64,000 nucleotides of DNA, from contig OX597838.1 of assembly GCA_951406725.2 (NCBI GenBank), positions 6,262,001-6,326,000 of the forward strand, given 5' to 3'. Under the pieces are notes generated by a model. It saw only the letters and a list, made by a program, of their open reading frames with translations. It did not search any database and was not told the DNA's origin. Source of the stretch: Octopus vulgaris (taxonomy: Eukaryota). Position 1 is the first letter of the stretch. Each line of letters starts with the position of its first letter. The position numbers and the translations under genes are program-made. Below, in pieces: positions 1-61,977 of this stretch.

Positions 1-394
1 CATCAGCTAAAATACATGTGAGTTCTCTAGACATCCTATTGGTTGAGGCTATACTCATGAAGTAGATAATTAAGTAACATAAATAGATTTCCAAAGTTCA
101 TTAAAGTTCTTTAAAGATGATGTACAGTCTTATCTGTACATCATCTTTAAAGAACTTATCTGTACATCATCTTTAAAGAACTTTAATGAACTTTGGAAAT
201 CTGTTTATGTTACTTAATTATCTACTTCATGAGTATAGCCTCAACCAATAGGATGTCTAGAGAACTCACATGTATTTTAGCTGATGAGTACAGGACACGT
301 TTATATGCTGTAATTTTTGCAACTTTTAATAAAGCCTGTCCTTGTATGAAACGATTGTACTAAAAACCTATCCATTCTTGTTGCTTCTTTCTCG

Positions 395-397
<3 letters not shown>
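1..397. mobile_element. Fold-back remnant of a probable Penelope-like element terminal repeat; left arm runs off the window edge
   Basis: 1-127 is a near-perfect reverse complement of about 160-286; a 26-nt tandem duplication (129-154/155-180) lies at the apex; a hammerhead motif follows; the element ends at a (TA)n tract. Confidence 0.7.
275..365 (+). ncRNA. Type I hammerhead ribozyme motif
   Basis: Stem I TTTTAG(275-280)/CTAAAA(360-365); CTGATGA 281-287; stem II GTACAGGACA/TGTCCTTGTAT with a long loop; GAAA 348-351; minimal stem III C-GATT-G; GTA cleavage triplet 357-359. Confidence 0.75.
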
Positions 398-436
<39 letters not shown>

Positions 437-442
<6 letters not shown>

Positions 443-939
443 TTGAGGGTACTACTATTCGTAGATACCACACGCTAAGAGGGACCAATGCGGTCAAAAC
501 TACTAAAAGTAAACAAAATTTTACCGAATGCAAAACTTCAAAGCACATCATTTTAAAAAAAGAATTCAGTTACATATCACATGTGATTTCGCATTTAATG
601 CAGAATATGCATTTCATGTTCATCAGTGCAACAAACTCAAGAAATATAAGAAAAATCATAACATTACAAGCTCGATAGCCAACCGTAGAATTCGTCGTAG
701 AAAGTACGAATGTTTATCTTTACATATCTATGAAAATGGCGGGCTTATTCGCAATGCATTTCGATAACAAATTGCCTACTCGGAATAAAATTCAGTATTG
801 AACTATTCCGGTGAAAAATATAACTTAACAATTGAGGATAAAATCTTTAAAAGAAATTATCAGTAGTCAGCGTGAAAAACCTCGTAAAAGAAAAAATCCG
901 TAAATTCTTCCTCTTTGAAAATATTCATATATTTCTTTT

Positions 940-945
<6 letters not shown>
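437..945 (+). mobile_element. Unclassified structured interspersed element between (TA)n tracts
   Basis: Both ends are homologous to the reverse complement of 51180-51430 (CACGCTAAGAGGGAC..TACCGAATGCAA and GTAGTCAGCGTGAAAAACCTC) but in permuted order. Confidence 0.55.
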
Positions 946-1000
<55 letters not shown>

Positions 1001-3626: not shown

Positions 3627-3705
<79 letters not shown>

Positions 3706-4597
3706 TGAAAACAACATTCCCATTTTTCCCCGTTTCGTTCCCTCTCATCAGACAACAAAATACTCAACATGGGTCTCGATTTGATCTGGTAGTTAAAGAT
3801 AATATATGTGGTGGGAGAATACTGTAATTTCTTGCCTGGTGGATTTACGTTTCGTCGATTCTTTAATAGCATCACGGACATCAGTAAAAAGCAAAAAAAA
3901 TAACAACAATAAAAACGACTTATCTAACTCTAGATTTCTGCTACTGTACCAACATAGAATTGTCAAATGCAGCAAAACATAGCAGTCAAATATAGATAAA
4001 TGTACAGTATTTCTGTTCTGAAATGAAGGATATATTTTATTAGAAGAAATTTTTTAAAAAAGCATGGTGGTGTATAAAAGCGCAAGATCACTTTCTGTTC
4101 AAAAAAGGCTGACATGATGTTCGACAATAGTAAGAAAAAACCGAACGCAAGAACAGTTAGAATAACATTGCGAAGTAGCTGCTTTCTGCTAAAACGAATA
4201 AGAAATCAATAAACATAGAAATGGTTGGTTCACGTTAATTTTTGACATGGTTTAAATCTTATTAAAGAAAATACATTTTCTTGTCATATTTAGAATCTCT
4301 GTAAGATTATTTCGCTCTACAGAAACGAAATCCTTTCTATTAGATTAATAAGGAATCAAAGTCAGACGAATTCAAGGAGATCATACGCGGTTTAATTGAT
4401 TTGTTTATTTATTTATATTTTATATATTATTATTATGATTTTGTTGTTTTTTTCGAAACAGAACCTTCAGTAATTACTTTCATGACGTCATTGTCAATGA
4501 AAAGAAAAAGTAAACAGGTCGTAACTGTTGCAAGGCTAATTAACTTTTGAATCAGCATTCGCACTCTATTACACGAATTTCATTTTCTAGAAGTGCA

Positions 4598-5685: not shown

Positions 5686-6511
5686 AGCAGAGTGATGGAA
5701 AGAGAGAGAGAGAGTGAAGCAAAAGTAGCGTGTGTATAATAGAAAATTAACGAAATTACAAATTAATAATATATAATCAACAGACCAGTAACGGTATTAA
5801 TACTGTTTCATAAAATGTTTGAAGAAAAAGAAGAAAGGAGTTGGGAAGAATTTGTTTAGAAATATATTTGTTTTATTTACTTACTGTTTGGTTACGTAAG
5901 TGACGCAACGTCCAACTATATATATATACAAGAAAAAAGCAACAAAAATGGATCGATATTTCGGTACAGTTGTTTCGTACGAAGACACCTTTATTAAGGC
6001 TGCAAATATTGCAGTAAATACACGTGGCCCGTACTCATCAACCGAAAAAACAATCTGAGTTCTCAAAACATCTAAGAGGGTGAGGCTACACTCATGAAAC
6101 ATTCGGGATAGTTCTATAAAAATCAGATTTAGATAATAAACGGACATCCAAAGTTCTCTAATGTTGCACATTCAAATAACAGACTTTAAAAAATAGTATT
6201 TTAAAAAAAACCTCTTAGTTTCACAGAAATTGAAAATGTAAATCCATCCATAATAATGAAGAATGTTTGAATTCTGGAGATATGAGGAGAGATTTCATAC
6301 TCACAGACGGTGTATTTATCCATAATTAGTTCATAATAAAGTGGGTTTCATGATGTATGAAGATATTCTGGTTGCATTTCTGATCATTTTTGTTGCTTAT
6401 AATTACCCCACGTTATCTTATGGTTAATACCATATAGATTTCTGGTGCATCTAATTTAAGTATCTATATTCATGTGAATTCAACAGAACTCACTTGAATC
6501 TTAATTACTTT

Positions 6512-13233: not shown

Positions 13234-13448
13234 GGAGTAAACACATAAATGTGAAACAAGGTGGAAAAAAGAGTACTCAAATACCAGTGGTAGAGTAATA
13301 TGCTTTATGCGCAGAAATTCAACAAAATCTTTTCGAGTTTCTCGTTGCCGTTCATCAGACAGTTTTTGCTAGCAAAACTGTCTGATGAACGGCAACGAGA
13401 AACTCAGAGTAACAGATTTTGTTGAATTTTCTGCTGCTTAAAATAAAG
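13233..13448. mobile_element. Fold-back remnant of a probable Penelope-like element
   Basis: Imperfect palindrome 13311-13434 centred on GCTAGC (13368-13373); contains a hammerhead motif; flanked by (TA)n on both sides. Confidence 0.7.
13378..13415 (+). ncRNA. Minimal type I hammerhead ribozyme motif
   Basis: CTGT-CTGATGA-A CG GCAA CG A-GAAA-CTCAGAG-TA-ACAG: stem I CTGT/ACAG, very short stem II with a GNRA loop, near-palindromic stem III. The minus-strand copy in the left arm lacks the cleavage segment. Confidence 0.65.
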
Positions 13449-18119: not shown

Positions 18120-18270
18120 TCAGGGGAAGTTTTAAATTGATTATATCGAGCTGAGGGCAAAAATGGTGCTTTATTATATTGACATAAGAGGGTGTTATGC
18201 TATAAGTCAACCTCGGCGGAATTTGAACTCAGAAATTAGTGACTCAGAAGAAATACCACGAAACATTTTT
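18120..18270 (-). mobile_element. Degenerate SINE fragment of the 31447-31861 family
   Basis: AAGTCAACCTCGGCGGAATTTGAACTCAGAA at 18204-18234. Confidence 0.7.
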
Positions 18271-20092: not shown

Positions 20093-20447
20093 GAGGAGCA
20101 ATGGTTAAGGCTGGGGACTCGCTGTTTCGATTCCTAGACCGGGCGTTGTGACTATTTATTTAGCGGCAACACCTAAAGTTCCACGTGGCTTCGGCAGGGT
20201 GTGGTGGCGTACACTGCTGTATTCTTACATCAAATTTTTTTTTCACTCTTTGGTCCTCTTTCTGCTGTACCTGTATTTCAAAGGGCCCGCCTTGTCACAC
20301 TGTATCCCGCCGAATCTCCCCGAGAACTACGTTAAGGCTACACGTGTCGGTGGAGTGCTCAGTCACTTGCACATTAATTTCACAAAATACATTGTTCCGT
20401 TTATCGGATCAACTGGAACCGACGTTGTCGTAACCGACGGAATGCCA
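20093..20447 (+). mobile_element. tRNA-derived SINE, diverged copy of 58693-59084
   Basis: Colinear blocks TTTCGATTCC.AGACCGGGCGTT, CTGTACCTGTATTTCAAAGGGCC and TCGTAACCGACGG. Confidence 0.85.
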
Positions 20448-29428: not shown

Positions 29429-31446
29429 ACATGATGAATGCAATTATAGAAATGTTTACCTTTTTTGTTCTACAAATTATGAAAATAATGCTTTATATAA
29501 TGAGTTATATAATAATCTATTAATTATATTGTGTAGTTTATGCATCTCAGTATCATATTATATCATGACATATCCTCATGTATTATTTAATGCCATTCAC
29601 TACAGCTTTTATCTTTGTATATAGGCTCAAGATTCGGAGTTATATATTGCTAAAGGATATAAGCATCGGCTACAAATCCGAAACAAAAATGTGTATTCTT
29701 CAGAAGTGATATGAATTTTTCATCAATAATGAACACTTTTGAACCACAAAGGAAGAAACACTGTGTATTACTTATTAACAGACTGAGAAGCTTTTACCTC
29801 CGACTCTATTATTCCTGAACTGCGACATAAAATATAAACATATATTTCTCTAATTATTTTGGCCGTGATCCGAACTGCTAATCCGATTCGCTACTCACCC
29901 TTTTATTACGTGAATATATTTTGTCAAAGGATTGTACAGCATGTTACTATACAAGAGAAAAGAAGGATTTCAATAACAGACCCTCAAATCAGAAAATCTG
30001 ATGCATCGACAGCAATAAATTCCAACGATGCTTGAACGTTTTCGTTTCATTACTTTTTCTATTGAAAATATTTACTTCAAGGGGATAAATCCCTGTGCAA
30101 GATGATTTATTTTCGCTTTATTTATTTGATATTTGATATTTGGTATGGCAATATTTTCCAGGGCCACATAAGGACACTAGCTTTGGAAGTTTTGATTCTA
30201 TAGAGGATATTAAATGTGGAAGAATTGCCAAACAGTTGTCGAGTGTCATATTGAATATCAATCGGTTTTTGTTTAGGATTTCTCATATTATTTCAGTACA
30301 TAATTGGAAAGGTGGATCGCTGTTAGCCATAGGAGATTGAACAGTAACATTTTTATATTTAGAATAGACTTGGCAAGGAAACAATTTTGATTGAAGTCGA
30401 AACCTCACTTTTCACGTTATATTATCGTCATATTGAACGATTTTTGTCTCCTCGCATGGAGAGCGGCATAACATTTGTGATGAAAAGACTCATAACTCGA
30501 ATATTGGATTGAAGTTCGATTCCAAACAAGATTTTTACGAAATTCGCTAATTCCAATAATAGTGCATACATGAGCACAACAAATTCCAATAATTCAAGCC
30601 TCAAACCTATATATTTAGTCAGAAAGGAATTGAAAAAGACAATAGAGGATAGTTTGTCATTCCACTGCTTGGAATATGTGCTATATAATTATCTATCTTC
30701 TATAAGTATTTGTTTACTCTCAGCTTGCCGTTTGAGCCCTGTTTATTGATATGCGTTCTAGCCGTGGCCATCCCATTTTACTTCCTTTTTCATAGGCTGA
30801 TGTTGCATGATAATAGCGACTGTAGAATATTATAGAATGGGTAAAATATCGCATCATATTGCCTGAAGGTTATTTTATTTATCCACATTTTATACTACCG
30901 GCACACGTGTTATGCATTTTCCTAATTCTATCCCAACGTAAATTTATTGATCGAGATGTTATTGCTTTATCTTTTTAAAAATGGATTGTCGTATATTCGA
31001 ATGTTCTCCTTCGTTCACGTTGTTTAATTCACAACTCACGAAAGCCTTTTATGGAAAATTTAGAAACAAACAAGTAGAACTCTTGTCAGTTGTAAAAGTT
31101 CAATTTCTGAGATGTATTTACTTACAAAGTCATCCCAGCTTTCAGTTTTAATTTTTTTTTTCGTTTTTTAGAAGTCTGTGAAAGTATTGTATTATGTTGT
31201 GTGGAGTAACAGGGAAATTTGGCTACACCTTTCACATTTTAATAGGCTGTGTGACCCTGTTGAAGGTAACACTTCGGCAACGAGGTACCGCACCTTTACA
31301 ACGCTTAATGACAGGAATACATTAAGTATACCGTATGATAGATATAATATGTTTATATTTGATACAAAATGCTTATCTCGAAATCTTTCTCAAATTATAT
31401 TTATCTGACAATCATTCTAAAGTTTCATAGCAGAAAATATATTTTC

Positions 31447-31861
31447 TATTTCCTTACTACCCACAAGAGGCTAAACACAGAGAGGAAAAACAAGGACAGA
31501 TAAACGGATTAAGTCTATTATATCGACCCCAGTGCGTAACTGGTACTTAATTTATCGACCCAGAAAGGATGAAAGGCAAAGTCGACCTCGACGGAATTTG
31601 AACTCAGAACGTAACGGCAGACGAAATACCTATTTCTTTATTACCCACAAGGGGCTAAACACAGAGGCAACAAATTAGGACAGACATAGGTATTAAGTCG
31701 ATTACATCGACCCCAGTTCGTAACTGGTACTTAATTTATCGACCCCGAAAGGATCAAAGGCAAAGTCGACCTCGGCGGAATTTGAACTCACAACGTAACG
31801 GCAGACGAAATACCGCTAAGCATTTCGCCCGGCGTGCTAACGTTTCTGCCAGCTCGCCGCC
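31447..31861 (-). mobile_element. SINE family A, dimeric body, 22-bp TSD
   Basis: Minus-strand head GGCGGCGAGCTGGCAGAAACGTTAGC, B-box GAGTTCAAATTCC, central GCCTTT(C/G)ATCCTTTCGGGGTCGATAAATTAAGTACCAG; two units of about 185 bp; TCATAGCAGAAAATATATTTTC duplicated at 31425-31446 and 31862-31883. Confidence 0.92.
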
Positions 31862-36700: not shown

Positions 36701-36776
36701 TTGTAAACAGCGAACTTATAGATATACGCTCATTCATACGCTCACAAACGCAAATATTATGTACAAGCGAATATAT

Positions 36777-37173
36777 ATTTCTTTACTACCCACAAGGGGC
36801 TAAACACAGAGGACAGGCAAACAAGGACAGGCAAACGGATTAAGACGTAACTGGTACTTAATTAATCGACCCCGAAAGGATGAAAGGCAAAGTCGAGCTC
36901 GGCGGAATTTGAACTCAGAACATAACGACAGACGAAATGCCTATTTCTTTATTACCCACAAGGGGCTAAACATAGGGGGGACAAACAAGGACAGACAAAA
37001 GGATTAAGTCGATTATATCGACCCCAGTGCGTAACTGGTACTTAATTAATCGACCCCGAAAAGATGAAAGGCAAAGTCGACCTCGGCGGAATTTGAACTC
37101 AGAGCGTAACGGCAGACGAAATACGGCTATGCATTTCGCCCGGCGTGCTAACGTTTCTGCCAGCTCGCCGCCT
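36777..37173 (-). mobile_element. SINE family A, dimeric body
   Basis: Two tandem units plus one head, highly similar to 31447-31861. Confidence 0.92.
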
Positions 37174-38386
37174 TCGTACAAACACATATAAGCATAATAT
37201 CTATACATGATGTACACCATCGAAACACATATACACATACTCTCTCACAAACATTCCAAAGCATTAATTTGTAGTTACAACCTAGGAACCAAACCTAATG
37301 AGTGGATTTTTGAACATCGGTGCTGGTTTCTAAATAAGTGAAGCAAACACAGTATATAAGGATTTTTTAATTGTAGAATTTTAATATGTTAATAATAAAG
37401 GCACGGATATGAAAAATCTTTTAAAAAATTAAATAAACTGTGGTAATCGTACTACAAGAATAGAAAGCTATTTTAAATGCTATTATCAGAATGAAATATC
37501 GTATATTGCTTTCACTCTTAAAAAGAAATTGAGGACCGTTAACTGAAGAAAAATTGAAAGAATTTAAAATTGTGGAATCTGAAAGTTTTCTTTTATACGC
37601 TTCTAAGCATAGGAAATATCTTGCATATACTTAGGGCTGTTCAAAGTCAGTGTTTACATTTTAATATAGATTTTTCAATAACCGTAAGTGATTCACATGA
37701 AAAAGGGTGGAAGATGATGTTAGATGTGAGAGATATTAAAGGGTTTATAGACTATTTGTATCGTAACTATAAAGAAATTTGAAACCGAGTAATAGTAAAT
37801 ATAGACTGCTATTGTATGAATTTTTAAAGAATGGGAAATATTTAGGTAAACATTAATCAAAAGAAATGTAAATGATATATTATATGGACGTATGAAATAA
37901 AGTTTAAATTTCAGAATCTTGTGGAGATAATGAGAAAAATAAAAATGAAGCAAACTATAAAATGATCTTATCAGAGAAAATGGCGGGGGTCTGATATTTC
38001 TTGTCAAGTAAACTGAAGTGGTTGCTTATACGAAAATAAACGCGTCATTATATATGAGTAGCTATATTAAAGTTATAAATAATCGACATTAGTTTAAGAT
38101 TGGAATTCTATCGGTGTAATTCGAAATTTGACCTCTAAGTATATGAAACTGCGAATGAAAAAAAGTTAAACTGTACATACATGTGTGTATGTAATTGTAT
38201 GTTTGTGTGTGTGTGTTTGTGTATGAATGTTGATGGTCAAGCGATCAGGGTTTCGCATTCACAAACGTAAGAAAGTACTTTCGATTCCAAAAGTAGTGTC
38301 ACCGAATGTATTTTTTTAAAGTAAAACACTTCGTATAGTTTTATTCCACACTGATATACACAGACAGATACATGCACACGCACACC

Positions 38387-41454: not shown

Positions 41455-41787
41455 TACATTATTTACATTATTTACATTCGACAGATATTTGTCCTCATCT
41501 TGTTTGTTGTTAACTCAAAGTTTCGCTGATATTCCCTCCAGCGTTCATTTTGAGGAAATTTCGAACCCAGATTCGGAATTTCCCCATGACACCTTATAAA
41601 GGCTGGAGGGTATATCATTCGAAACAGGTTCGAAATTTTCTCGAAACACCTGATGAAAGCTGGAGGGTATATCAGCCGAAACGTTGTGTTAACAAGAACC
41701 AAGATGAGGGCAAATATCCATCAAATGTAACTAATGTAAATAATGTAAAGAAAGTACATAAATCCTCATCTCTTAAATATTGAACTA
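41455..41787. mobile_element. Fold-back remnant of a probable Penelope-like element
   Basis: Diverged inverted arms at about 41455-41548 and 41653-41747; internal duplication of the GCTGGAGGGTATATCA segment; hammerhead motif; (TACA)n flanks. Confidence 0.7.
41645..41690 (+). ncRNA. Minimal type I hammerhead ribozyme motif
   Basis: AACAC-CTGATGA-AAGCTGG AGGGTATA TCAGCC-GAAA-CGTT-GTGTT: stem I AACAC/GTGTT, stem II GCTG/CAGC, essentially no stem III (palindromic AACGTT). Confidence 0.7.
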
Positions 41788-46707: not shown

Positions 46708-46989
46708 ACATACATATATATATATATATTTCTTTACTAATCACAAGGGGCTAAACGCAGAGCGTGTGTGCAAGTGTGTGCAAACCAGCCAGACATTGCT
46801 CGCCTACGCAGATGCAGTAATACCAATGTGTCTCTCAAGCTGTCACTTCTGTGATTATACCAATTCAGCTAGCTATTACGTATATTATGTTTTAGCACAA
46901 TACTTTTGAAAGAAATAATTTTTGCCGGATAAAACAACCGCAGTTTGTGGCGTTTAAACGGCAATAGTTCGTAATGTTGTAATTTGCGT

Positions 46990-47663: not shown

Positions 47664-49041
47664 ATGTCTGTGTGTATGTATACATTTATAATTAATCAAG
47701 GATAATATATAGCTATATAAATATATCTAAGTGTGTGTGTCTGTGTATAGATATGTGAGTAAATGCACACATACAGATACACACGCACACGCGAAACATA
47801 TATACGTATACATTGTCAGAGAGTAATAATTGGTATGGTCAATCTCCGTAGCATATTAATATATATACTAAGACAACAGAGAAGGGCAGAACTAAATGCA
47901 AACATATATGTTTCCTGTCGTCTATTATCATCAAACAATAAAATTATAAACACAATGTGTTAATATACGAGATTAGTTGCTTTGTCATATGATTCTAATG
48001 TTTCGCATTATTAATTTCGTCTTTAAAGACAAAATCAACGTCTAATGTTTACTTATGCGCTTAGATATTGAAATACTAAAGAGTTTCCAATCTTTAAATA
48101 TGAAGTTAATAATCCGGAAAATATAATACTACAAAAGTAGAGATCTAACAGAACGCTTTGATATACGTGAATTTTGAGAAAATATTAGTATCTTTTAAAT
48201 GTGTATATCGCTATGAAAGTTGCAAATTCCCGTGGTAGGTCTACATTTCAATGACCCTGGAATTACCCGTAAATGTGTTAAATATGAAAACCGTGGTATT
48301 CGCTAGAATGTCATCGGACGTCGATTGAGGTTATTGGGTCTCAACAAAGTTAAATAGTATATATAGGAGTGAAGGAGTATGCCGTTACCTTGAGAAAACT
48401 ATGAAGAGAAGAATGTTCCAAAATCTTGAATGTTTTAAACCTTTAGTCAAAGCATAGCTTGACACGATTTTCAAGGGGAATCATTAACGTGCTAAACATT
48501 GGTTAATAATGTCATATTACAACAGAAGATACATTTTCACTGTAACTTGACTTGTGAACATAGCAGACACGCAGTAGTTGGGCATTGGATTTCTTAAATG
48601 CTCAACTAGGTCATGTAGATAGAATCCTACCCTGTTACCAAATTCATAGAATACATTCTACAGAATCTTTTGAAATGCTTCCAAGGAAATACTTCCAAGG
48701 AAAATATGCGTATATTTATTGAACCCCTATAAGTAATCTTAAATTTTGGAGGACACAAATAAATGTGATCTTACATGTGGAAAAAATTATAAAGATCCCC
48801 TTCGTTCATGAATGACGGTGTGATTGCTCATTGAAAGATCACCTCCGTGGCACAAGTCCTGGTGAGGTTGTTTTGTGGAAGACCAGCAAATGCCCATGCA
48901 CACGTACTTTCTTTTACTGATGACGGTATGACTTGAAGTATGAACTTAAAGAACCTGATCAAATGCCAAGAAGTATTTTTGCTAAACTCTAACGCTTCCA
49001 GATTTCTTTCTCTGAACTGTCATAATTTGGTTACCAGCACA

Positions 49042-49352
49042 TGGTCGGATACGACCACGAGTTTTGCCATTGGTCTGATAAACAGAATATCACTCAAGAA
49101 ATTAATGTAGAAGTGGCTGACTACTTCACAGTTACGTATACCCTTAATGTAGCTCTCAGTGAGATTTAATGTGACACAGAATGTGACAAGCTTAGCCCTT
49201 GGAATTGCAGGTACAACTCATTTTCGCCACCTTAGTGGACTGGATCAACATGAAGTAAATCGCCTTGCTCAAAGAGCACAAGGCATCACAGAAAATAGAA
49301 CTTACGACCTTACACTGTGATCGGAATATACATACCGCTAAGCCACGAACCT
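49042..49352 (-). mobile_element. Degenerate tRNA-SINE sharing its 3' half with 58693-59084
   Basis: GAAATTAATGTAGAAGTGGCTGA..CCCTTAATGTAG..GTGACACAGA..GTGACAAG matches the reverse complement of 58915-59010. Confidence 0.65.
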
Positions 49353-51146: not shown

Positions 51147-51179
<33 letters not shown>

Positions 51180-51181
<2 letters not shown>

Positions 51182-51430
51182 TGATGATCTGTAGCTAAAT
51201 TCTGTTTTTAAATGACTTGCTTCGAGACTTGCATTCGGTATGATATGTTTATTTGGGTAGTTTTGACTTTAAGAGTCCCTCGTAGCGTGCGGCATTTATG
51301 TGTAATAATGCCCTCTATATAATATAAATAAATATATTCAAGTGAAAAAATTTACAGATGTTTTCTCTTATGAGGTTTTTCACGCTAACTACTTGATAAT
51401 TTCTTATGACGATTTTATCCTATTTTTAAA
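51180..51430 (-). mobile_element. Unclassified structured element between (TA)n tracts (family of 437-945)
   Basis: Reverse-complement homology to 440-590 and 830-935. Confidence 0.6.
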
Positions 51431-51441
51431 TTATATACATA

Positions 51442-51506
<65 letters not shown>

Positions 51507-52144: not shown

Positions 52145-52590
52145 TGGTGAGCTAGCAAAATCGTAAGGATGCCGGACGATATGCTTCGCGGTTTTTCGTC
52201 CGTCTTTACGTTCTCAATTCAAATTCCGTTGCGGTTGACTTGGCCTTTTTTTCCTTTCATATTTGCTAAATTAAGTACCCCTTAAGTACTGGGATTGATG
52301 CAATTGTCTAGACCAGTGCTTTTCAACCTTTTTGCTGAAGCGGAACCCCAAGAAAACATTTCACTGGCTCGAGGAACCCCTGTGCAATAATTTTATTGTC
52401 TTATGCACACATATCTGCACAGGAAAATTAAAAATTACTATCGATTTTAGCATTTTTGTAACATCTTGCGGAAACCCTGGACTGTATGGCGGAACCCTAA
52501 GGTTCTACGGAACCCTGGTTGAAAACCACTGGTCTAGACACTTCCACCAAAATTTCAGGCCCGGCATCTGTACTTGATAGAAAAAATATA
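52145..52590 (+). mobile_element. Degenerate SINE family A interrupted by a hAT MITE
   Basis: GGTGAGCTAGCAAAATCGT..TTCAAATTCCG..TAAATTAAGTACC; the tail resumes after 52539. Confidence 0.7.
52314..52531. mobile_element. hAT (Charlie-like) MITE with 8-bp TSD
   Basis: TIRs CAGTGCTTTTCAACC / GGTTGAAAACCACTG; TSD GTCTAGAC at 52306-52313 and 52532-52539; subterminal GGAACCC repeats. Confidence 0.93.
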
Positions 52591-53920: not shown

Positions 53921-54328
53921 CAACAATTGAGGGTAAAATTAATTAATTATTAATCAATTTCACCAAGTGTTCAGTATGCAAAGGGACCATTTAAGGCGAA
54001 TTCAAATTATTACATTATATAAAAGGGCTTAGTAAAATAAATTACTTTGCCGCATACTGAACTCATTAGAAATAGCAGCTAAAAAACTTTTTTAAAGCTA
54101 TTTCTAATACTTAAAGAAAATCTCTCTCATATATAGTGTTTGCTTAATTCAACTCACAAACTTTTGTGAGTTGAATTAAGCAAACACTATATATAATTAA
54201 GCAAACACTATATATGAGAGAGATTTTCTTTAAGTATTAGAAATAGCTTTAAAAAAGTTTTTTAGCTGCTATTTCTAATGAGTTCAGTATGCGGCAAAGT
54301 AATTTATTTTACTAAGCCCTTTTATATA

Positions 54329-57287: not shown

Positions 57288-57346
57288 AACTTATCTTAAC
57301 ATGTTACATGACCTTTATAAGCTGTCTTAATCAAATTCATTTAATA

Positions 57347-57475
57347 CAGTATACCTCGGTTTACGAACGACCCTGATAACGAATAAATCGTGCTTTATAC
57401 ACACACACCTATATATATATATATATGGCATGAGTTATTCGCAAACAGAGTTGTCCAAAAACCGAGGTGTTACTG
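57347..57475. mobile_element. Pogo/Tigger-like MITE
   Basis: TA-CAGTATACCTCGGTTT ... AAACCGAGGTGTTACTG-TA, with a central (CA)/(TA) run. Confidence 0.75.
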
Positions 57476-58631
57476 TATATATATGTAAGTATATGAGTGT
57501 GTGTATATGTATATATGTGTGTGGGGATGTATATGTCTGTAAGCATGTATAGTTAATATCTTATGTATTTGCAAATTCTGCAAAGAACAGGAACGAATTC
57601 TTATTTCGGATAGTGGAACCAGGCGCAAAGAATGCTAAAATTAATATATATATATATATATATATCAAATGGCAAACAGACACCTATATAATAAATTCAC
57701 CTAATAATCTTACCCAGTTAACCACTCTCATCGTCTTTTACATTTCTGTCATGAAGAGTTTTTGTTTTTATTACACCAACGATACAATAGTGAATATTTA
57801 CTTTGTTGGAGGGAAACGAAATCGAACCAAGAACCATACAGTTGCAAAGCGAAATTTTTAATATGTGGAAAAATGTCGTCCTCGTTTCTTCCTTAACACC
57901 CGTAATTTTAACGAAAATGTTTACGCAACATTCTGAACACATTGCGCATTGAAATGGTTGATTGAAATTTTGCTGGTTGAGCATAATAACATTTTATTTC
58001 TACTCCGTAAATAGATTTAAATGTTCTTGTCTAGAAAGAGAAATTGTAATGCATGCAGGAGAGCGCCTAGTCATGATTTACAAGTTTCAGAAATGTGTAC
58101 CGTATTCATTCGCTTATGGCAACACTGATCTAATTCAATGGTCGATTTTCGATAATTTAATCTTATAATGTAGCTTAACTGATGTATCCATTACAATTCC
58201 GCTTTTCTTTTATTTTATTATTACATCGCTTTAGATAGTATATTTTCAAACATAAAACTAACTTCCTCGTCCTAAAATCTCATAATTAGTTTAGCAGTTT
58301 CAACAGAGACATGGTAACAGGTACACGACGAAGCTGTATGCAAATAACCTGAAAGTAAAGTTTACACATATGTTCTCCGACAAAGTAATTTTCATATTAC
58401 CACCGAACCACCACTAACAGCAACTAAGCCAATGACGCTCCACAGGAGGTGGTTTTTGTGGTCGCTCGACTTGTTAAAAACGGCAGCTAAGATTTGCTTC
58501 AATGACAACCCGCCGAGTTTTAGACATGTTAAACGATACATTGGGAAATGTAGTCAAGATGCAATACTGTGGATTGATCACAGATGGAAAGGTTTTGATC
58601 ATAGGTTCGATCCAACACGATTGATATACAC

Positions 58632-59137
58632 TACGAACGCCTCTGATAACGAATAAATCCCGCTTTATATATGTATATATATATAGCAAAGTGGAGGCGC
58701 AATGGCCCAGTGGTTAGGGCAGCGGACTCGCGGTCATAGGATCGCGGTTTCGATTCCCAGACCGGGCGTTCTGAGTGTTTATTGAGCGAAAACACCTAAA
58801 AGCTCCACGAGGCTCCGCCAGGGGATGGTGGTGATCCCTGCTGTACTCTTTCACCACAACTTTCTCTCACTCTTACTTCCTGTTTCTGCTGTACCTGTAT
58901 TTCAAAGGGCCGGCCTTGTCACTCTCTGTGTCACGCTGAATATCCCTGAGAACTACATTAAGGGTGCACGTGTCTGTGGAGTGCTCAGCCACTTACACGT
59001 TAATTTCACGAGCAGGCTGTTCCGTTGATTCAGATCAACCGGAACCCTCATCGTCGTAACCGACGGAGTGCTAAAAGAAAAAAATATGATATATACCATG
59101 AGTTATTCTCAAACAGAGTTGTTCCAAAACCGAGGTG
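58632..59137. mobile_element. Second copy of the 57347-57475 MITE, split by a SINE and lacking both termini
   Basis: TACGAACG..CTGATAACGAATAAATC (58632-58659) and CATGAGTTATTC.CAAACAGAGTTGT..AAAACCGAGGTG (59097-59137) match the two halves of 57347-57475. Confidence 0.75.
58693..59084 (+). mobile_element. Full-length tRNA(Arg)-like SINE resembling the octopus OR families
   Basis: A-box TGGCCCAGTGG (58703-58713), anticodon-like TCG, B-box GGTTTCGATTCC (58746-58757), length about 390 bp, A-rich tail; related copies elsewhere in the window. Confidence 0.9.
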
Positions 59138-59184
59138 AAAGTTCTTTTTACCGGTTGCGCAACCGGTAAAAAGAACTTTCACCT
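59133..59184. repeat. Perfect 52-bp palindrome with no spacer
   Basis: AGGTGAAAGTTCTTTTTACCGGTTGC|GCAACCGGTAAAAAGAACTTTCACCT. Confidence 0.95.
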
Positions 59185-61378: not shown

Positions 61379-61977
61379 TATTTTTTATTGCCCACAGGGG
61401 GCTAAACATAGAGAGGATAAGCAAGGACAGAGACAAAGGGAAGTCGATTACATCGACGCCAGTGCGTAACTGGTACTAATTTAATCGACCCCGAAAGGAT
61501 GAAAGGCAAAATCAACCTCGGCGGAATTTGAACTCAAAACGTAACGGCAGATGAAATACCTATTTCTTTACTACCCACAAAGGGCTAAACACACAGGGGA
61601 GGAACAAGGACAGACAAACGGATCAAGTCGATTACATCAACCCCAGTGCGTGACTGGTACTTAATTTAATCGACCCCGAAAGGATGAAAGGCAAAATCAA
61701 ACTCGGCGGAATTTGAACTAAGAACGTAACGGCAGATGAAATACCTATTTCTTTATTACCCACAAAGGGCTAAACACAGAGGGGAGAAACAAGGACAGAC
61801 AAACGGATCAAATCGATTACATCGACCCCAGTGCGTGACTGGTACTTAATTTATCGACCCCGGAAGGATGAAAAGCAAAGTCGACCTCGGCGGAACTTGA
61901 ACTCAGAACGTAGCGGCAGACGAAACTCCGCTAAGCATTTCGCCCGGTGTGCTAACGTTTCTGCCTGTTCAGCGCCG
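61379..61977 (-). mobile_element. SINE family A, trimeric body
   Basis: Three tandem units of about 182 bp starting near 61379, 61561 and 61746, plus a single head. Confidence 0.92.

Follow-up and report, generated by a model that had tools for sequence, protein, structure and literature searches.

What kind of element gives rise to a repeat whose two halves, within one stretch of Octopus vulgaris DNA (contig OX597838.1, 64,000 nt; hereafter, the window), occur in opposite order, each time inside a (TA)n tract? The best explanation, to which we give a probability of roughly 70%, is that the repeat is a unit of a multi-copy non-coding repeat, a non-LTR retrozyme, which a borrowed Penelope-like enzyme reverse-transcribes from circular RNA into (TA)n. 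Within the retrozyme reading, the template would be a circle slightly more readily than an uncut tandem RNA, both with the same DNA outcome.

The sequence-only reading had described an element of about 510 bp inside (TA)n, with a block A first and a block B last, and a homolog in which B directly precedes A. The element does lie between two (TA)n tracts (437-945, with the tracts at 397-442 and 944-1000), and its end was moved inward, as the unit stops at ~932 and the following 11-13 bases (933-943) do not belong to the closed unit. The permutation was borne out by alignment. The counterpart of block A (437-587) is 51322-51177 (74%, E 6e-17) and that of block B (818-932) is 51436-51324 (83%, E 3e-26); in the homolog, block B stops at 51324 and block A begins at 51322. 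When the element is closed at 932->437, it aligns to the homolog without a break, with 210 of 257 aligned positions identical and nothing larger than one-base gaps at the junction. The direct B-then-A order of the homolog was thus as claimed, and its bounds were widened from 51180-51430 to 51177-51436. This partial copy is without the CUGANGA and GAAA cores of the hammerhead described below; a third copy was not found within the 64-kb window, and a target-site duplication is unreadable within the (TA)n flanks of both copies.

The full unit comprises about 490-496 nt with 31% GC, is non-coding and is opened within an AT-rich linker. The longest stop-free stretch on its sense strand is 47-67 codons, and none exceeds 67 codons in the doubled unit. 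A plus-strand frame of 79 aa was considered as a protein and rejected, its single Pfam match (E 0.098) being far short of the cut-off and taken as chance. Simple patterns detected no Pol III A box in the element and a lone B-box-like match on its minus strand, which speaks against a tRNA-type SINE. Elsewhere in the window there are a SINE-like family in tandem arrays with a unit of 184-185 bp and 2-3 copies each (31446-31861, 36770-37178 and 61379-61976), fragments of it (18132-18268, 46722-46762 and 52146-52312), and a dispersed repeat of ~330 bp in three copies that are 70-81% identical (20119-20445, 58742-59072 and 49036-49215).

Compared with shuffles, the whole linear element folds with z -2.0 on the plus strand and -2.3 on the minus strand, and the circularized element with z -2.1 and -2.4 (0 of 60 shuffles equally low), a modest predicted folding signal that does not give the choice of strand. 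The circular or tandem topology had originally been argued from two helices, AGCGTG/CACGCT and GTAG/CTAC, that were thought to close only in the B-then-A order. This argument was abandoned because the linear element already forms those helices, both being nested in its minimum-energy fold; the homolog on its own does not fold more stably than its shuffles (z -1.0 and +1.2). The conclusion drawn from it, a retrozyme-like monomer whose template was circular or tandem, is retained on other grounds, namely the predicted hammerhead and the end-to-start joints.

Features of the element, its partial copy and its neighbour in the window
Feature	Position	Strand	Basis or content
Retrozyme-like repeat unit	437..932	(-), inferred RNA sense	Self-closing joints and family contigs
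Extra bases beyond the closed unit, inferred 5' end of the insertion	933..943	Unassigned	Alignment and joints
(TA)n flank, inferred 3' (priming) end	397..442		Repeat tract
(TA)n flank, inferred 5' end	944..1000		Repeat tract
Predicted type I hammerhead	562..638	(-)	Own descriptor and motif scan
Hammerhead stem I	638-627 with 574-562	(-)	
Hammerhead core CUGAUGA	626-620	(-)	
Hammerhead stem II (29 nt)	619-591	(-)	
Hammerhead GAAA	590-587	(-)	
Hammerhead stem III	587-576	(-)	
AUA triplet, predicted cut	between 575 and 574	(-)	
Block A half of the structured module	445..503	Unassigned	Fold and compensatory changes
Block A hairpins	448-469 and 483-495		Compensatory changes
Block A arms complementary to block B	445-448, 471-476, 498-503		
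Block B half of the module, arms complementary to block A	863..883 (863-868, 869-874, 880-883)		
Partial second copy (260 bp, inside (TA)n)	51177..51436	+	Alignment
Hammerhead stem III and cut triplet of the partial copy	51177-51189		Further content of the copy: stem I 3' arm, block A, linker, block B
Penelope-like terminal piece, separate from the element	1..396	+	Palindrome 1-286, hammerhead 275-365, 37-nt tail into (TA)n

Contigs from 4 of the 24 listed public sequencing runs (X2, X3, X6 and X20) were aligned to the element at 80% likeness. X3 and X2 are guessed to be DNA and X6 to be RNA, X20 is the only run recorded as RNA, and the contig data carry no strand, RNA level, circularity or copy number. 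The 945 contigs of X3 and the 629 of X2 lie over all 30 bins of the element, and X20 gave a single contig (493-742, depth 2.2). These contigs place the element in a multi-copy family with many diverged copies. Contigs that run from the end of the unit back to its start were seen at 932->443 in X3 and X6 and at 934->443 in X3, with further joints at 932->445 and 916->443 in X3 and at 932->652 in X2. Four of the seven X6 contigs (records 18, 22, 23 and 24) together close the unit into a loop, neighbouring contigs overlapping by 25-30 nt, and this fits a circle or a tandem, of RNA or of DNA; the remaining three are more diverged or bear flanks. Head-to-tail joints were seen, but no contig is long enough for two hammerheads, and the joints could derive from copies slightly longer than one unit. 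Runs X9, X22 and X23, which belong to one study, differ in their share of element words (0.38 vs 0.00); word shares for runs other than the four aligned were not used as evidence. A 21-mer pattern of block B had 2 loci in metagenomes and none in genomes or viral contigs, and a hammerhead pattern had 30 loci in genomes and none in viral sequences. All 32 loci were rejected as further copies, showing no likeness to the element beyond the pattern, and the phage collection held no match to the element.

A type I hammerhead is predicted on the minus strand of the element, which is opposite to the strand that had earlier been taken as the RNA. Our descriptor was built from the textbook core of the type I hammerhead and drawn up after the site had been seen; it has 2 matches on both strands of the window, this site (638-562) and one in the neighbouring element (275-365). 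Of 3000 dinucleotide-shuffled versions of the element, 5 contained any match to it and 1 a match with the observed stem lengths. The ribozyme-shaped fold has -15.0 kcal/mol against a minimum of -16.1 (gap 1.1), and shuffled sequence folds as well as the 81-nt hammerhead region (z -0.98). The G-U pairs of stem I form on the minus strand only. Four pairs of stem III are kept across three versions with three different loops (the element, the homolog and an X3 loose end), and the cut triplet is AUC in the homolog vs AUA in the element. A loose end in X3 behind 694 is a family variant in which a hairpin loop of the unit holds a short (TA)n, after which the element resumes.

The variants listed among the family contigs include one at the free core position 7 (622), one that restores the pair G10.1-C11.1 (619) and one by which a stem I G-U becomes A-U (567). 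In the element itself, 10.1/11.1 is an A-C mismatch, and G-C at this pair makes up only about 51% of the depth in X3 and 14% of that in X2. None of the 40 variant rows listed, of 46, hits an invariant core base, which by itself is weak support, estimated to occur by chance in ~1 of 6 cases. As far as base changes can tell, the variants in other copies fit a minus-strand hammerhead fold. Rfam gave 0 matches for the whole window at gathering score, and at E up to 10 for 1-1000 and 51150-51460 it gave palindrome and microsatellite matches only, with no ribozyme; it likewise misses the hammerhead of the neighbour.

This neighbour and the element lie tail to tail in one shared (TA)n. It looks like the end of a Penelope-like element (PLE), and its layout fits the PLE layout in PMC8557442. 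Its hammerhead is a full type I with a 60-nt stem II, and in the middle of its 286-bp palindrome (1-286) a 26-bp stretch is duplicated in tandem (129-183). A related Penelope-like terminal piece is at 5931-6165 on the minus strand, ending in (TA)n at 5931. Judged by motif and layout, these pieces show that the genome holds hammerhead-bearing, (TA)n-inserting elements besides the retrozyme-like unit. The element has no similarity to either of the two pieces, an equal score being reached by 89 and 114 of 200 shuffles. Three further sites (13304-13442, 3700-3780 on the minus strand and 41484-41718) are palindromes or sites with close CUGAUGA...GAAA cores, like the minimal hammerheads of PLEs; these failed the full hammerhead descriptor. 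Long near-perfect palindromes with no obvious hammerhead core are present at 54022-54322, 57344-57478 and 59133-59184.

Given such neighbours, the unit might itself be the pLTR of an autonomous PLE or a DNA satellite derived from one, with its permutation produced by partial-tandem insertion or by DNA duplication and with no free RNA circle. Type I hammerheads and insertion in partial tandems are features of PLE pLTRs (PMC8557442), frog retrozymes are described as related to pLTRs (10.64898/2026.07.22.740005), a purified PLE works mainly on uncut RNA (PMC11167929), and the window itself contains pLTR pieces in (TA)n. We nevertheless regard this as improbable, since downstream of the hammerhead one comes, after ~490 nt, to the start of the unit again and to no ORF, in keeping with the short stop-free stretches of the doubled sense unit, and no long continuation is common to the 14 loose ends listed, of 131. 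The PLE-type terminal repeat, which had been proposed alongside the retrozyme, accordingly became the less likely alternative as the unit closes on itself without an ORF. As for linked reverse transcriptase (RT) or GIY-YIG frames, no RT or endonuclease frame was evident by eye among the 71 frames of at least 100 aa in the window.

A linear element with fixed ends would yield B-then-A joints if two copies had inserted side by side in one (TA)n and had later been truncated. The spacers at the 932/934 joints consist of 4-8 TA-like letters that differ between copies, a family that favours (TA)n is expected to produce neighbours, and the X3 joint contigs have single-locus-like depth (38-103), all of which would suit such adjacent insertions. 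But the spacers are only a few letters long and are no microsatellite tracts, and the homolog aligns across the junction with one-base gaps. Moreover, X6 contig 18, the only listed cover of 824-932 in its run, is ~98% identical on either side of the joint, and a copy in X6 begins with the B-side letters of the linker ahead of block A. We therefore give adjacent insertion little chance.

Helentron ends have a terminal hairpin beside a short inverted repeat, and head-to-tail joints are known for Helitron/Helentron elements; the element resembles them in the hairpin near one end, the short inverted repeats and the head-to-tail joints. Although active Helitrons are listed for Octopus vulgaris (PMC13282606), a non-autonomous rolling-circle element (Helitron/Helentron) or other DNA transposon, with B-A as a head-to-tail DNA junction and hairpins acting on ssDNA, is the most improbable of these readings, as the element has no terminal inverted repeats and no CTRR in its last 25 nt on either strand, its inverted partner is situated 60-70 nt from the other end, and the hammerhead motif, the G-U pairs and the internal ends at TA motifs would be left unexplained.

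Returning to the retrozyme reading, the ends of the copies bear on the template. In the ribozyme sense, the element makes one complete turn whose opening, in the linker, lies 138 nt past the predicted cut, and the homolog starts 13 nt upstream of the predicted cut and ends at the position matching 818, ~250 nt past it. Both copies in the window run across the predicted cut site, which excludes a cleaved linear monomer as their template and leaves a ligated circle or an uncut tandem RNA as possible. The homolog shares its boundary at 818 with nine X2 contigs, which begin there behind (TA)n; other contigs stop near 579 before (TA)n, and one joint is at a motif at 644. Four of the five classes of ends (the linker, 818, about 579 and 644) are at most 2 nt from ATAT/TATA, the exception being the homolog end at 587, and these motifs, located at 437, 574, 605, 644, 724, 818 and 921-932, cover 13% of the unit (rough p 0.001 for the proximity). 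This count is based on the listed joints and the 14 listed loose ends of 131, and ends beside (TA)n are ambiguous. As a lead from these alignments, copies appear to end preferentially at ATAT/TATA motifs next to (TA)n.

A second conserved structure spans the A/B junction. In the two block A hairpins, 4 of 12 pairs are changed on both sides between the window copies and 0 are broken; this covariation comes from two sequences only, 32 of 500 shuffles reach it, and slid controls are 21-33% paired. The change of the pair 486/492 recurs in all three deeper runs, and the module has no Rfam family match. Our guess is that it serves as a docking site for the borrowed enzyme.

Under the retrozyme reading, the cycle would start with read-through transcription of a locus holding more than one unit, from which the hammerheads would cut out monomers that a host ligase would close into circles; monomer excision and ligation to circles have been published for coral, mussel and axolotl retrozymes (PMC7229834). 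A microsatellite-targeting Penelope-like protein would then nick (TA)n, and the DNA end would act as primer where the RNA is rich in UA, mostly at the linker, 138 nt past the cut, and also at the patch at 818. Copying would go one full turn, as in the element, or halt early, as in the 51-kb copy, giving permuted copies. We guess the partner to be a Neptune-type PLE because cephalopod Naiads are old remnants; Neptune and Naiad PLEs show a (TA)n bias (both from PMC8557442). According to PMC11167929, a purified Poseidon-clade PLE starts copying at an internal position of the RNA that lacks homology to the cut DNA, and it works mainly on uncut RNA; this behaviour argues against the proposed priming step and against the need for a circle. 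We advance only tentatively, and think it rather doubtful, that the genomic copies, thousands of them in this reading, come from one RNA circle that was opened now at one UA-rich point and now at another, and so record target-primed reverse transcription on a circular template, with the A/B-junction structure as the binding site of the Penelope-like enzyme.

In general, the unit is similar to metazoan non-LTR retrozymes (coral, Mytilus galloprovincialis and axolotl; PMC7229834) in being short and non-coding with GC below 50%, in having one type I hammerhead (here predicted) per unit and no LTR structure seen, and in closing on itself, with many copies and PLEs in the same genome. Its 490-496 nt exceed the 170-400 nt of the retrozymes in PMC7229834 and are inside the 51-972 bp given in the vertebrate survey 10.64898/2026.07.22.740005, and it is seen as one-unit or shorter copies in (TA)n and not as arrays; both the unit size and the solo monomers are within the published retrozyme range. 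Different from metazoan retrozymes are the 29-nt stem II, the several TA-like opening points and the second conserved structure at the junction; PMC7761336 reports for them no conserved motif pointing to a partner.

With the pLTRs of Neptune, Poseidon and Naiad elements (PMC8557442 and PMC11167929), the unit has in common that a type I hammerhead lies upstream of the insertion end, that microsatellites are the targets, that reverse transcription starts internally (here a proposal) and that no target duplication is visible in (TA)n. It differs from them in the lack of an ORF and in reaching 138 nt past the cut, vs a PLE tail of 30-40 bp (37 nt in the neighbour); Naiads, according to PMC8557442, are without canonical hammerheads, in contrast to the hammerhead predicted here.

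The published literature on retrozymes, Penelope elements, hammerheads, octopus and cephalopods gave no report of this family, the search lying mostly outside subscription journals and repeat databases. Nor was a published report of a retrozyme in octopus found, the search not extending to the supplement of PMC7229834, which possibly names more hosts; the supplement to the Octopus vulgaris repeat paper PMC13282606 has no sequence and no ribozyme term. For animal retrozymes at large, the template, the priming and the partner enzyme of the return to the genome are still hypotheses in PMC7229834, PMC7761336 and 10.64898/2026.07.22.740005.

Because the family has many copies, some of them permuted, and a simple target, the re-entry of retrozymes into the genome becomes testable. 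If the ends prove fixed, the element would be an ordinary further retrozyme or a PLE remnant. If the retrozyme reading is true, it would add an octopus retrozyme, and if the permuted ends record the copying of a circle, they would supply a missing step and a recognition motif of the retrozyme life cycle.
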